From Chakrabartia sp. (GTDB taxonomy: Bacteria > Pseudomonadota > Alphaproteobacteria > Sphingomonadales > Sphingomonadaceae): a DNA stretch of 64,000 nucleotides. This document shows positions 4,251 to 19,102 of this stretch, in pieces. The position numbers and the translations under genes were made by a program. The stretch is from positions 7,854-71,853 of the forward strand of contig JBEBKH010000003.1 of assembly GCA_040079575.1 (NCBI GenBank), in the 5' to 3' direction. The notes below the pieces were generated by a model. It saw nothing but the letters and a program-made list of their open reading frames with translations. It ran no database searches and had not been told where the DNA came from. How positions within the stretch are numbered: the first letter of the stretch is position 1; the number at the start of each line of letters is the position of its first letter.

Positions 4251-4276
4251 CGGTTGGCTTTCAGCCAATCTCTTTT
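4251..4276 (+). terminator. Probable intrinsic terminator of the M20 gene
   Basis: Hairpin TTGGCT-TTC-AGCCAA followed by TCTCTTTT, about 40 nt after the stop. Confidence 0.55.
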
Positions 4277-4308: not shown

Positions 4309-4478
4309 AGTCTTGCAATGTAGGATTTGCTGTGGGAAATTTGGGGCGCTCTTTCTCATTTTGGATATATAGCGACACCCTGCTGGGTACCCCAGAGCAT
4401 AATGGCTGCTTAACTTCGCAGTGGAGCGCCCGTCCCTAAGAAGTTTGCGAAGCTAAGGGCAAAAAAGCGCAGTTTTAC
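4309..4478 (-). repeat. Dispersed structured intergenic repeat, copy 1
   Basis: Reverse complement aligns with 17864-18070; exact shared blocks TCCACTGCGAAGTTAAGC, CAAAATGAGAAAGAGC, AGCAAATCCTACATT. Confidence 0.9.
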
Positions 4479-4514
4479 GGCCCTTGCAATGATAGGCGGC
4501 CCTCAAGGCAGCAA

Positions 4515-11984: not shown

Positions 11985-14425
11985 ATTTTAATCCGTGCGT
12001 TGGTGGGGTCATACATGGGTTTGAGCGATGCGGTGACGGGATAGCGCACACCCGCAATTTCGATTTCATAGTCATCCGCGCCTATCGGTCCGACCACCTC
12101 GTCATTTGCTGCTGTGACATAGCCAAGCCCGCAAGCTGCGCCGAGAGTATGGGCATACATGCCAGAACGAATGTAACCGGCGATGCGATCTCCCTGCCAG
12201 ATCGGTTCATTATGATAGAGCATCGGGTCGGGCGATTTTAGCAGAAACTGAACAAGACGCTGTTTGAGGCCATCCTGCTTTTGCTTGAGCAATGCATCAC
12301 GCCCGATAAAGCCACCCGCCTTGTCCATCCGTACTGCAAAGCCAAGTCCAGCCTCTAAAGGCGTGTCTTCATCGGTGATGTCGTGACCCCAGTGACGATA
12401 TCCCTTTTCCATACGCAACGCATTGAGCGCGTGATAACCACAATGTTTGAGGTCAAATGCCGCACCCGCCGCGACGATTTCATCGTACACACCGGTCATG
12501 AATTCAGATGCGATATAAAGCTCCCAGCCCAATTCACCGACATAGGTAATGCGTGAAGCGCGGACGATGGCATAGCCAAGTTCGATGTCCTGAGACGTGC
12601 CGAACGGGAAGGCTTCGTGCGATAGATCATTGGGGCAAATCGACTGAAGCAAGGCGCGCGCATTCGGCCCCATGATTGAAATCACACCCATAGCAGAGCT
12701 GACATTGGTCAGCACCGCATGCGCATCATCAGGCGTATGACGTTTCAACCAGTTGAAATCTTTAATTTCGGTCTCTGCCCCTGTGACGATCAAAAAGGCT
12801 GTGTCGGACAGGCGGGTGACGGTCAAATCCGCTTCGATCCCACCTTTTTCATTGAGCCACTGTGTATAGATCAGCTTGCCCGGCGCAACATCGACATCGT
12901 TCGCGCAGACACGGTTGAGCACGCTGCAAGCATCGCGTCCTTCCAACCGAAATTTTGCGAAGGATGACTGATCGAACAGGCCTACCCCCTCGCGCACCGC
13001 TTTGCACTCAGCCGCATTGGCTTCAAACCAATTCTGACGACCATAACTATATTCATATTTTGGCGCACTACCCGGGGCACCGTACCAATTAGGCCGCTCC
13101 CATCCGAACGCCTCACCGTGACACGCGCCCGCTGCTGCCACGCGGTCATGGATCGCAGAACGGCGAACGCCGCGCGCGGTTTCATATTGTTTGAACGGAT
13201 AATGGGTCGCGTAAAGCAGGCCGAGGCTTTCGGTTACCCGCTCACGCAGATATTTGCGATTGATCTGAAAAGGCATGTTGCGGCGAATATCGACAGTCCA
13301 CAAATCGGCTGGCGGGATACCGTCACGGATCCAGTCAGCCATCACCTTGCCAACACCGCCCGCCGATTGCAGGCCGATTGAGTTCAAACCCGCTGCAACA
13401 AAACAGCCTCTGAGTTCCGCACTTTCACCCAGATGATAGCGCACGTCGGGGGTAAAGCTTTCGGGCCCGCAGAAGAATTTCTGAATGCCCGCTTTCTCAA
13501 GTGCGGGCACCCGGCGCATCGCATCCATCAGCAACGGTTCGAAATGTTCGAAACTCCCCGCAATTTCATCAAAGCAGAAATCTTCGGATATGCCGTCCAT
13601 CCCCCAGGGCCGCGCATTGGGTTCAAACGCGCCAACGAGCAACTTGCCCGCGTCATATTTATAATATCCGCAATAATCATAGTCGCGCAGCACAGGGAGC
13701 GTTGAATCGATTCCCTCAACACCTTCGAACAGAACATAATAATGTTCACAGGCGTGCAACGGAGCGGCGACGCCGATACTCGCAGCCAAATCGCGCGTCC
13801 ACATGCCGCCGCAAATCACGACATAGTCAGCATCGATTGATCCTGTGTCGGTATCAACGCCAGTCACGCGGTCGCCGTTGTGGCGGATTTTGGTAACCTT
13901 GGTATTTTCAAATATCCGTGCGCCGCCAGTGCGCGCGCCCTTCGCCAACGCCTGTGTAATATCGACCGCATTGGCATATCCATCGCTCGGAATATGGATG
14001 CCGCCCACCACATCATCAACATTGACGATATGTGCGAGCGCCTTGATTTCTTCGGGCGTGACAACATGGACGGGCAGATCGAACACTTTGGCCATTGAGG
14101 CGCTTCGTTTGAGTTCCTCAAACCGTTCCATATTGGTCGCCATCGAAATTGAACCGCACTGGCGATATCCCGTCGCTTGACCGGTCTCAGCCTCAAGCCC
14201 GCGATAAAGTTCGCCGGTATATTTGGCCAGCTTGGTCATGTTGATGCTTGGGCGCAATTGCCCGACCAGCCCCGCCGCATGCCACGTCGTGCCACTGGTC
14301 AACTGCTTGCGTTCCAGCAAGACAACATCGTCCCAGCCGATCTTTGTCAGATGATAGGCAATCGAACAGCCGATCACGCCGCCGCCGACAATGACGACCT
14401 TTGCCTTTTTGGGGAGTTCAGCCAC
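11981..14425 (-). CDS. GcvT-family FAD-dependent N-methyl amine dehydrogenase (sarcosine/DMG dehydrogenase-like)
   Basis: GGGVIG, TTWHAAG (covalent FAD His), GPESFTPD, GWERPNW; C-terminal THF-binding GcvT domain. Confidence 0.93.
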   Translation of the reverse strand: MAELPKKAKVVIVGGGVIGCSIAYHLTKIGWDDVVLLERKQLTSGTTWHAAGLVGQLRPSINMTKLAKYTGELYRGLEAETGQATGYRQCGSISMATNMERFEELKRSASMAKVFDLPVHVVTPEEIKALAHIVNVDDVVGGIHIPSDGYANAVDITQALAKGARTGGARIFENTKVTKIRHNGDRVTGVDTDTGSIDADYVVICGGMWTRDLAASIGVAAPLHACEHYYVLFEGVEGIDSTLPVLRDYDYCGYYKYDAGKLLVGAFEPNARPWGMDGISEDFCFDEIAGSFEHFEPLLMDAMRRVPALEKAGIQKFFCGPESFTPDVRYHLGESAELRGCFVAAGLNSIGLQSAGGVGKVMADWIRDGIPPADLWTVDIRRNMPFQINRKYLRERVTESLGLLYATHYPFKQYETARGVRRSAIHDRVAAAGACHGEAFGWERPNWYGAPGSAPKYEYSYGRQNWFEANAAECKAVREGVGLFDQSSFAKFRLEGRDACSVLNRVCANDVDVAPGKLIYTQWLNEKGGIEADLTVTRLSDTAFLIVTGAETEIKDFNWLKRHTPDDAHAVLTNVSSAMGVISIMGPNARALLQSICPNDLSHEAFPFGTSQDIELGYAIVRASRITYVGELGWELYIASEFMTGVYDEIVAAGAAFDLKHCGYHALNALRMEKGYRHWGHDITDEDTPLEAGLGFAVRMDKAGGFIGRDALLKQKQDGLKQRLVQFLLKSPDPMLYHNEPIWQGDRIAGYIRSGMYAHTLGAACGLGYVTAANDEVVGPIGADDYEIEIAGVRYPVTASLKPMYDPTNARIKI

Positions 14426-16853: not shown

Positions 16854-16940
16854 CCGCTCCTGATGGGATATTTTGTCGCACAGCTTAAGGCGAGACAGGG
16901 GCAGGATACAAATGGGGATTATGGTTGGATTGGTTCAAAA
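16854..16940 (+). repeat. 87-bp direct repeat copy A; promoter/RBS region of module A
   Basis: Aligns with 18182-18268; the 32-nt block CAAATGGGGATTATGGTTGGATTGGTTCAAAA is identical at 16909 and 18237. Confidence 0.9.
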
Positions 16941-17053
16941 AATTTAAGGGTAAGGCAAAACAGGTTAGGGTCAGGACCGCGTCACGACAGCGTCACACAA
17001 GGCGTCTATTTTGGTATCTCTGATCAATAATGGTTGATATTGGGCGGATACAG

Positions 17054-17836: not shown

Positions 17837-17863
17837 ACACGCTTTGGGCGATATTGGAACGAC

Positions 17864-18070
17864 GCAAAATAGCGCTTTTTGCCCCTTAGCTTCCCAAACT
17901 TCGCAGGGAGGGCCGTTCCACTGCGAAGTTAAGCGCTTGTGCCCATGGCAAAGCCCAATCAAGCACACCACTGCGGGAGACCCGAGAGGGGTCACCTTAT
18001 GCCATCAGGGATATTCAAAATGAGAAAGAGCAAGCCAAATTGCTCATAGCAAATCCTACATTACAAGGCT
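17864..18070 (+). repeat. Dispersed structured intergenic repeat, copy 2
   Basis: See copy 1; contains perfect stems AACTTCGCAG/CTGCGAAGTT, GCAAAA/TTTTGC, GACCC/GGGTC and GAGCAA/TTGCTC. Confidence 0.9.
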
Positions 18071-18181
18071 GAAGAGACAGCCAAAGATACTGCGCTTTCC
18101 GGTTCTGACGTCCGCTGTTGCTGCCATGCCGGGCGTCACACGGCGACACAGCGCGGATGCGTTGGCCAATGTGCAGTTTAA

Positions 18182-18268
18182 CCGCTCCTCCATGGGATAT
18201 TTATGGCATAGCTTAACGCGAGTCATGGGCAGGAGGCAAATGGGGATTATGGTTGGATTGGTTCAAAA
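18182..18268 (+). repeat. 87-bp direct repeat copy B, upstream of the SDR gene
   Basis: Offset 1328 nt from copy A; mostly substitutions plus small indels. Confidence 0.9.
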
Positions 18269-18337
18269 TATTCCTGGGGGAGGGCGTCATGTGCTACTCG
18301 TGGACCATATTTCTTCTCTTGTGAAAGACTGCGCGAA

Positions 18338-19102
18338 ATGAAAGTGGCCATAGTGACAGGCGCTGCACAAGGTGTTGGCTTCGCGACGACGCAATTGCTG
18401 ACCCAGAAGGGCTATCATGTCGTGATGACTGATGTGCAGCCGCTCGACGCGCAGCTCAGAAGCCTTACCAGAGATGGCGGCAGTGTTTCTGCATTGTGTG
18501 GTGACGTGGCATCCGAGGCATTTGCAAAAGAGCTTGCCGTCAAGATTGTCGCTGATCACGGTGCTGCAGATGTGCTTGTCAACAATGCGGGTATCAGCTT
18601 GATCTGCCCTGCAGAAGAGACAAGTCTTGAGCAATGGAATCGCATGATGGCGATCAATTTGGCTGGGCCGTTTCTGCTATGCAGGGAATTGGGGCGGGCG
18701 ATGCTGGACCGCGGCAGCGGCAGTATCGTCAATGTGGCCTCTATTGCAGGATTGCACGGGGTGATTCATCGCGCGGCCTATAACGCATCCAAACATGGTT
18801 TGATCGGATTGACCCGCACTTTAGCGGCGGAGTGGGGTGGCCGTGGAATTCGTGTGAACGCCGTATGTCCCGGCTGGATAAAAACCGAAATGGATGCTCG
18901 CGATATGGGTGCGGGAGCCTATAGCGACAAGGATATTGTTGATCGCGTTCCTTCGGCCCGTTTTGCCAAACCCGAAGAGGTCGCGCGCGCGATTCTGTTT
19001 CTTGCGCGCGATGATAATTTCATCAACGGTGCCAGTCTGCCCGTCGATGGTGGATGGACAGCAGATGCAAGTTGGGATGCTCTGCGTTTGCAAACGCGGT
19101 GA
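18338..19102 (+). CDS. Short-chain dehydrogenase/reductase
   Basis: TGAAQGVG, VNNAG, YNASK, PVDGGW. Confidence 0.95.
   Translation: MKVAIVTGAAQGVGFATTQLLTQKGYHVVMTDVQPLDAQLRSLTRDGGSVSALCGDVASEAFAKELAVKIVADHGAADVLVNNAGISLICPAEETSLEQWNRMMAINLAGPFLLCRELGRAMLDRGSGSIVNVASIAGLHGVIHRAAYNASKHGLIGLTRTLAAEWGGRGIRVNAVCPGWIKTEMDARDMGAGAYSDKDIVDRVPSARFAKPEEVARAILFLARDDNFINGASLPVDGGWTADASWDALRLQTR

Follow-up and report, generated by a model that had tools for sequence, protein, structure and literature searches.

An unnamed multicopy intergenic family, a candidate for small RNA genes, in a freshwater sphingomonad and its sister species

Multicopy families of trans-acting small RNAs (sRNAs) include the alpha-r14 'cuckoo' RNAs (CcsR) and AbcR1/2 of Alphaproteobacteria and Qrr1-5 of Vibrio; four V. 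cholerae Qrr sRNAs are reportedly treated in a single paper. Dispersed intergenic mosaic repeats are represented by REP/BIME and ERIC in enterobacteria, BOX in pneumococci and RIME in rhizobia. RNA genes, in turn, can act as insertion points for foreign DNA: this holds for tRNA and tmRNA genes and for the Salmonella ryeA/ryeB sRNA locus, which has been described as an insertion hot spot. Integron attC sites are imperfect palindromes of 57-141 nt whose R''/R' ends pair and which form same-orientation arrays. To our knowledge, almost no sRNAs have been described from freshwater sphingomonads, and literature searches found nothing on an element of the kind analyzed here.

The window is a stretch of 64,000 nucleotides from a Chakrabartia sp. 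assembly (GCA_040079575.1, contig JBEBKH010000003.1, positions 7,854 to 71,853 of the forward strand), in which a sequence-only reading had proposed a structured non-coding element with conserved arms and a variable core. Both non-coding copies are present at the positions it gave and on opposite strands, copy 1 at ~4312-4479 (plus) and copy 2 at ~17863-18067 (minus). Long exact blocks common to both (AATGTAGGATTTGCT, GCTCTTTCTCATTTTG and GCTTAACTTCGCAGTGGA) were recovered as well, within a 5' arm and a 3' arm that enclose an indel-rich middle. The two copies align with 78% column identity, the indels lying in the middle, and their similarity is far above chance (nhmmer E 1e-42 to 1e-47). Their parts, in window positions, are as follows.

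4312-4329, plus strand: 5' box of copy 1, CTTGCAATGTAGGATTTG, with the -35-like TTGCAA at 4313-4318; the box is found in 13/14 family copies.
4336-4341, plus strand: -10-like hexamer of copy 1, GAAATT, 17 nt past TTGCAA, from the spacer statistics of 31 members.
4332-4359, plus strand: inverted repeat P2 of copy 1, GTGGGAAA ... TTTCTCAT; its 5' half overlaps the -10-like hexamer.
4349-4359, plus strand: invariant pyrimidine-rich block of copy 1, CTCTTTCTCAT, the predicted transcript 5' end and candidate seed.
4370-4407, plus strand: variable core (spacer) of copy 1, judged by its length and its drift between orthologues.
4408-4457, plus strand: 3' module of copy 1, with X AACTTCGCAG at 4412-4421, X' CTAAGAAGTT at 4436-4445 and X'' TGCGAAGCT at 4446-4454.
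4458-4479, plus strand: tail of copy 1, GGCAAAAAAGCGCAGTTTTACG, made of an A-run, a short GC hairpin and a T-run; the sequence drifts, the hairpin and TTTT recur.
18050-18067, minus strand: 5' box of copy 2, CTTGTAATGTAGGATTTG, with the -35-like TTGTAA at 18061-18066 and the -10-like GCAATT at 18038-18043.
18020-18030, minus strand: block CTCTTTCTCAT of copy 2, the predicted transcript 5' end.
17935-18010, minus strand: variable core (spacer) of copy 2, 73% identical to the orthologous core of the sister species.
17885-17934, minus strand: 3' module of copy 2, with X at 17921-17930, X' at 17897-17906 and X'' at 17888-17896.
17863-17884, minus strand: tail of copy 2, GGGCAAAAAGCGCTATTTTGCG; GCAAAA:UUUUGC is paired in the fold.
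18068-18078, minus strand: C/T-rich lead-in directly 5' of copy 2, where a 1.28 kb low-GC insert is found in the sister species.

Copy 1 lies ~100 nt behind an M20-peptidase gene with which it is co-oriented, and that gene has a terminator-like hairpin of its own (4252-4270). The proposal that each copy follows a co-oriented gene is thus borne out for copy 1; it fails for copy 2, which sits on the minus strand between an acyltransferase gene and an SDR gene, both on the plus strand. The stems named in the sequence-only reading exist, with the correction that AACTTCGCAG/CTAAGAAGTT in copy 1 contains two mismatches (C.A and G.A) rather than a G-U pair and one mismatch. The complementarity of the P2 loop, GGGCGCTC/GAGCGCCC, was likewise found in copy 1; it shows no covariation and is a property of the family consensus. 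Around copy 2, a 92-nt intergenic direct repeat (87% identical, window 16854-16944 and 18182-18271) flanks the acyltransferase gene and the copy, and is also present in the sister species. The SDR gene (window 18338-19102) has no counterpart there, ~210 nt occupying the place of ~840 nt here.

The description as a two-copy element proved too narrow. BLAST and iterated nhmmer searches retrieved ~14 copies from the own genome (2.54 Mb, 202 contigs), which, like that of the sister species, is a draft assembly. Ten copies are full, three combine the 5' box and the 3' module with other middles (contigs C63, C89 and C97), and one consists of the 3' module alone (C18). Counted by part, the 3' module is present in 14/14 copies and the 5' box in 13/14, as well as in two copies of a second repeat type. 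The element measures 170-260 nt. Paralogues are 70-79% identical, and no near-identical copies were seen among the ~14 members. There is no neighbour gene common to the 14 loci, orientation with respect to neighbours is mixed, and the downstream gene is convergent in 9/13 copies, copy 1 included. Being dispersed, intergenic and free of a common neighbour or a fixed orientation, the copies look like independent units. They are also non-coding, since indels in a hairpin loop break the sole recurrent mini-ORF: MRNLARSFSF is shifted out of frame by 1-nt indels in two copies, and its stop is lost in six.

The second repeat type, ~95 nt long, is headed by the same 18-nt 5' box and occurs on the minus strand at C14:5986, C120:2691 and C63:5390-5543, the last being the 5' part of C63, and in the sister species at L036:591-665 and 1325-1478. 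It consists of the box, CCTTGCAATGTAGGATTTG, followed by ACCTGCCAGC...AACCGCCCTATCGCTGTC...GCAATCAGCG. A co-oriented gene ~190 nt downstream at C14 and at L036a suggests that the box may also drive mRNAs. The 5' box was compared with tRNA fragments too, and this reading was dropped, the likeness being imperfect and confined to the second repeat type. At C89:8832-8957, two tandem terminator-like units of ~40 nt, GATTTTTGAAATTCATCATGCCCCCAGCATGCTGTTTTC, separate the C89 element from the 3' end of a tRNA gene on the opposite strand; beside them lie a BanI-type restriction gene and a 454-aa ORF, neither of which was found in the sister species.

BLAST with copy 1 gave no match in 40 relatives. A pattern scan over one genome per species located the family in one other MAG, JAYUPB01 ('Sphingomonadales bacterium'), and in one 5.4 kb contig of a 'Limoniibacter' MAG. 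JAYUPB01 represents a sister species (~90% nucleotide identity) with 11 copies, 9-10 of which occupy loci orthologous to own-genome copies within flanking coding DNA that is 88-93% identical. The Limoniibacter contig (L018, JANOPZ010000075.1, 'Limoniibacter sp.' MAG) is 96-99% identical to the region of contigs C70 and C8, and is the only contig of this 3.0 Mb MAG with the family; it is probably misbinned and derives from a near-identical sphingomonad strain. The own-genome contigs C70 and C8 share a 98-nt overlap and belong together. Across them runs a same-orientation tandem pair of elements (C70:11438-11613 and C8:862-1044; in the sister species C42:11597-11773 and 12998-13177), 1.2-1.4 kb apart; between the two elements lie a DUF3335 (peptidase C39-like) gene and a MarR gene.

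Comparison of the orthologues separates the parts of the element clearly. Identity is 92% in the 5' module and 93% in the first 53 nt of the 3' module, against 71% in the variable core, 71% in the tail and 65-86% in neighbouring intergenic DNA where this is homologous. The contrast indicates that purifying selection acts on the arms in both species and at many loci. Among paralogues the core ranges from 35 to 105 nt, and its hairpins, noted in the sequence-only reading, show no compensating changes in orthologues. The core drifts like intergenic DNA, which argues against a programmable or guide function, and by this sequence behaviour it is an unconstrained spacer and not a guide. The family as a whole is old, has expanded to 11-14 copies in the species pair and is kept by selection.

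Beyond the pair, the other sampled species of the genus are distant (M20 peptidase at most 58% identical in amino acids), and, given the blank BLAST result for copy 1 in the 40 relatives, covariance models were required to reach them. Model R1, built on the 3' module, detected 2-5 diverged copies in three further species of the genus, and model R2 gave weak matches in six genomes from five other genera of the family; metagenome scans with one pattern per arm returned 0 matches. In the diverged homologues of the genus the order of parts is unchanged: a 5' box (CCCCTTGTAAAATAGGAAAT or TTGACAAATAGGA), the block GCTCTTTCTCA(T/C), a small hairpin, GAATA, a variable stretch, the 3' module and a T-run. 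The stem of the small hairpin differs between diverged copies (CCTCTG/CAGAGG, CTCCGG/CCGGAG). In every one of the weak homologues from other genera (L107-L116), a near-palindromic motif, CTGTCCTACAG, precedes the 3' module by 130-240 nt; within this motif lies the TGTAGGA of the own-genome 5' box as its reverse complement, and the motif therefore stands in the opposite orientation in those genera.

The 5' box has a promoter-like layout. TTGNNA is present in 31/31 box-carrying members (as TTGACA, TTGAAA, TTGTAA, TTGCAA or TTGCCA), and the hexamer at a 17-nt spacer has A2 in 30/31, T6 in 27/31 and both in 26/31 of them, a sample in which 21/31 members are close paralogues or orthologues and ~10 are independent. 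With spacers other than 17 nt, A2 and T6 occur together in 0 to 17 members. Restricted to 10 non-redundant diverged members, the count is 10/10 for A2 and 7/10 for T6. Over the family, the promoter-like spacing is constant. The box reads as a predicted promoter of the sigma-70 type (TTGNNA, 17 nt, nAnnnT), but a simple sigma-70 consensus scan did not call it, which marks the -10-like hexamer as weak. RpoH-, RpoN- and EcfG-type promoter consensuses and IHF, dif/Xer and FNR boxes were compared by eye, and none fitted.

Downstream of the hexamer, the block CTCTTTCTCAT is invariant in the alignment and reads GCTCTTTCTCA(T/C) in other species of the genus. In most members it begins 36-42 nt after TTG, that is, 7-13 nt past the -10-like hexamer. 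The inverted repeat P2, of which it is the 3' half, is paired in 96.9% of cells over 20 close sequences; its variation is one-sided, with 19 G.U cells compared with 5 unpaired ones. Under the promoter reading, the 5' half of P2 would be promoter DNA. The upstream P2 half, ATGAGAAA, is missing in diverged relatives, so the block is conserved for its sequence and not for P2 pairing.

The 3' module is built from three related 9-mers, X (AACTTCGCA), X' (TGCGAAGTT) and X'' (TGCGAAGCT), which allow two alternative pairings, X:X' (87% of cells) and X:X'' (83.5% of cells). No covariation above shuffles was detected in the 20 close sequences. When other species were included, three X:X' pairs had changed on both sides (16 cells, compared with 7.6 +/- 1.9 after shuffling; 0/500 shuffles reach this value) in an alignment of 35 sequences that was itself fitted to the model. 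X'' has changed in step with these pairs, so that between species all three 9-mers go from CTTCGC/GCGAAG to CTTCCC/GGGAAG, and many mismatches are tolerated at two helix positions. For the relatives, energy minimization yields a 17-19 bp X:X'' hairpin with UUUU directly behind it (dG ~-30 kcal/mol, z -3.8 to -4.1); as modelled, this is a classical intrinsic terminator on the given strand. The same picture of hairpin and U-run is clear in the C18/C89 subtype, and at C18 the 3' module and its T-run stand behind a co-oriented gene. The main subtype of the own genome differs: behind its long hairpin come an A-run, a short GC hairpin and TTTT. There is no consistent fold of the whole element between copies. 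The nine loop-loop positions are paired in 73% of cells, which exceeds slid controls and is equalled by 123/500 shuffles; a loop-loop pseudoknot was rejected, because cognate partners pair no better than shuffled ones, leaving a consensus feature rather than a co-varying contact.

The 5' edge of the element is associated with strain-specific DNA. Within ~10 nt of this edge, the two species cease to be homologous at four loci (C63, C105, C4 and copy 2), whereas the 3' flank is conserved at all compared loci. The 1.28 kb low-GC insert at the copy-2 orthologue lies exactly at the edge. Divergent genes start 130-320 nt upstream of eight own-genome copies, and at 6/8 of these (C4, C89, C63, C105, C40 and C70) the upstream gene has no counterpart at the sister locus; they encode an AbiU/AIPR protein (C4), a BanI-type restriction enzyme (C89), a nucleoside-deoxyribosyltransferase-like protein (C63) and three products with no family match. 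In a third strain, represented by the misbinned contig, a HEPN protein gene and a PDC-M34A homologue lie upstream of a 5'-truncated C70-type copy, so that this copy has three different upstream gene sets in three genomes. The sister species lacks the copies at C10 and C89 along with the genes upstream of them. Furthermore, 10/14 copies lie at most 1.3 kb from a contig end (binomial P = 6e-5), and this crowding fits population-level variation beside the elements. Exceptions are a breakpoint 124 nt upstream of the element (C70) and one that cuts into it (the G042 contig), and five copies have two conserved flanks with housekeeping neighbours. Neither recombinase genes in the variable segments nor a second copy of the box at the far ends of inserts was found. 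At C10, a SoxR-type gene (MerR family, CIGCGCLSLKKC motif; C10:12591-13028) ends 13 nt before the 5' edge; the sister species has neither this gene nor the copy, and an unrelated 176-aa gene occupies the position.

The association is real; its cause could be a docking site, or no more than the border where a selected element meets replaceable DNA. We see a small chance that the promoter-side edge is a docking point for integrase-less, often anti-phage cassettes, or else that the RNAs control divergent upstream defence genes. If either were true, the copies would form a dispersed, RNA-gene-anchored defence hot-spot system in a streamlined freshwater bacterium.

Searches for known families and mobile-element genes were negative within their scope. 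Rfam 15 gave no match at gathering score over the whole window, at E up to 10 for copy 1, or at E up to 0.1 for nine diverged homologues. Genes for Y1/RAYT (PF01797), IS110 (PF01548) and TnpB (PF07282) proteins are absent from both draft genomes, with positive controls; a REP/REPIN or IS200/IS605-derived element was rejected on the Y1 result in these drafts. The element has no inverted repeat at its ends, CCTTGCAATGTAGG... and ...GCAGTTTTGCG, and no target duplication in its flanks. A MITE with recent mobility was rejected, as paralogues are 70-79% identical and 9-10 copies sit at orthologous sites; at the one locus where the sister species lacks the element it also lacks the neighbouring genes, so this is not a clean empty site. 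An integron attC site was dismissed because the element has non-complementary ends and measures 170-260 nt, and because its copies are dispersed except for the single C70-C8 tandem pair.

Taken together, these data are best explained by an unnamed multicopy family of paralogous sRNA genes, a candidate reading that we hold with about even confidence. An unnamed ncRNA family had been among the candidates of the sequence-only reading, and it is the one now favoured by selection on the arms, the promoter-like 5' box with its fixed spacing, the terminator-like 3' module with its compensatory pairs and the negative Rfam result. The copies would be transcribed on the plus strand (copy 1) and the minus strand (copy 2), each into an RNA of ~130-200 nt. 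The promoter would be the 5' box, with the -35-like TTGNNA and the weak -10-like nAnnnT 17 nt apart, and a conserved TAGGA motif in the spacer is possibly a regulator site. Transcripts would start ~7 nt past the -10-like hexamer at the block (G)CUCUUUCUCAU, near 4348 in copy 1 and near 18031 in copy 2. Their accessible, pyrimidine-rich 5' end is a likely seed that may pair with purine-rich ribosome-binding and start-codon regions of target mRNAs. The drift-prone spacer would come next, then the hairpin of the 3' module (X, X', X''), and the long hairpin with its U-run, as seen in relatives, would end the transcript. We infer transcription, start site and seed function from such sequence features. 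Several findings count against the sRNA reading. The -10-like hexamer is weak and escapes the sigma-70 scan, the spacing statistic comprises ~10 independent members, covariation in the close set of 20 does not exceed shuffles, and whole-element folds vary between copies. The upstream motif CTGTCCTACAG has the opposite orientation in distant genera, an A-run follows the long hairpin in the main subtype, and X'' shares the G-C to C-G change, a pattern that three co-evolving protein sites in DNA would also produce.

The last point leads to the most serious competitor, namely that the family is an old dispersed mosaic repeat acting at the DNA level (of the REP/BIME/ERIC/RIME kind), with incidental transcription and with blocks that are protein-binding sites; we consider it clearly less probable than sRNA genes, though worth keeping in view. 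The 9-mers AACTTCGCA, TGCGAAGTT and TGCGAAGCT and the GCAAT-N6-ATTGC-like 5' box would then bind a recombinase, a nucleoid protein or a regulator. Such a repeat would account for the modularity (other middles behind the 5' box at C14, C120 and C63; a lone 3' module at C18 and its orthologue), the joint change of the three 9-mers, the lack of covariation above shuffles in the close set of 20 sequences, the common mismatches at two helix positions and the coincidence of strain-specific breakpoints with the 5' edge. It fits poorly with the lack of terminal inverted repeats, target duplications, near-identical copies and Y1/RAYT, IS110 or TnpB genes, and neither the constant promoter-like spacing nor the hairpin and U-run of the relatives is expected of a pure DNA site; moreover, the A-to-G changes in the 5' repeat are one-sided and preserve G.U on a single strand (19 G.U vs 2 A.C), which points to a strand-specific structure. 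Much the same absences (terminal inverted repeats, near-identical copies, Y1, IS110 or TnpB transposase) speak against the earlier suggestion of a non-autonomous mobile element, which is possible as an origin for copies that are now old and fixed at orthologous loci. Strain-specific breakpoints can also be read as a sign that the 5' edge is an att-like target of site-specific recombination, a landing pad for mobile gene cassettes, or that exchangeable islands, many with anti-phage genes, have the element as their fixed end. We think this unlikely. Homology that ends within ~10 nt of the 5' edge at four loci beside an ever-conserved 3' flank, the exactly placed 1.28 kb insert, the three gene sets upstream of the C70-type copy, the AbiU/AIPR, BanI-type, HEPN and PDC-M34A neighbours, the nearness of 10/14 copies to contig ends and the joint absence of the C10 and C89 copies and their upstream genes from the sister species are all in its favour, but edge breakpoints are expected for any selected element once unselected neighbouring DNA is replaced. 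In addition, the variable segments show no recombinase gene, the box is not repeated at the far end of the insert, two breakpoints miss the edge (124 nt upstream at C70, inside the element on the G042 contig), and both flanks are conserved at the five copies with housekeeping neighbours.

The two remaining explanations fare worse. A cis-acting leader or attenuator, in which X pairs with X' for read-through or with X'' for termination and so controls the downstream gene, draws on the mutually exclusive pairings (X:X' 87%, X:X'' 83.5%), on the U-run behind the X:X'' form in relatives and on a copy 60-90 nt upstream of a co-oriented trpG/pabA-like gene in two relatives. The convergent downstream genes at 9/13 own-genome copies, copy 1 among them, largely refute it, and for this reason a riboswitch or attenuator leader was rejected; the genes downstream in relatives are unrelated and of mixed orientation. 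It is therefore very improbable. We give hardly any credence to a guide-RNA scaffold with a programmable segment, as in the IS110 bridge RNA or the TnpB/IscB omega RNA, which the sequence-only reading had listed and which the data do not support. The general look (conserved arms, a variable middle, complementary loops in copy 1) is all that recalls one. The core drifts like neutral DNA, the loops do not covary, Rfam is blank, and the DEDD/IS110 recombinase, TnpB and Y1 transposase are absent from both genomes; a bridge RNA is thus rejected on PF01548, loops and core, and an omega RNA on PF07282 and on the flanking genes, which are housekeeping.

If the transcripts of the favoured sRNA reading exist, they would make up a new clade-restricted sRNA family with unusually many copies (11-14 in 2.5 Mb) and a clear candidate seed, and the shared promoter box suggests one common regulator and, with it, a ready-made regulon for freshwater sphingomonads. 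The coincidence of 5' edges and defence genes supplies concrete loci for studying how small defence islands may be exchanged without visible integrases. For annotation, the gain is two covariance models (R1 and R2) and the recognition of the 'variable core' as a spacer instead of a guide.

Set beside known systems, the family resembles multicopy sRNA families in that several paralogous candidate genes, 100-200 nt long, are spread over unrelated intergenic regions, each with a predicted promoter of its own and a predicted 3' hairpin terminator, and in that a short conserved pyrimidine-rich stretch is the likely pairing region while the rest diverges between paralogues. It differs from them in that it has no similarity to Rfam sequences or covariance models, its conserved stretch, CUCUUUCUCAU, lies at the predicted 5' end instead of being a CCUCCUCCC loop, its copy number is high (11-14 per 2.5 Mb) with transcripts that are predicted only, and its 3' module contains three repeats that form two alternative hairpins. 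With REP/BIME, ERIC, BOX and RIME it shares a species- or clade-restricted, intergenic distribution, separable modules, hairpins and either orientation; unlike these, it has a small number of old copies (71-79% identical), which two species carry as fixed elements at orthologous sites, its arms are under selection, a RAYT/Y1 gene is absent, and the promoter-like spacing has no counterpart there. As at tRNA and tmRNA genes and ryeA/ryeB, strain-specific and partly anti-phage genes adjoin the element, with the breakpoint at one defined edge. In contrast to those insertion points, neither an integrase nor a flanking direct repeat of the site was found here, and the variable DNA lies on the predicted promoter side and not at the 3' end.
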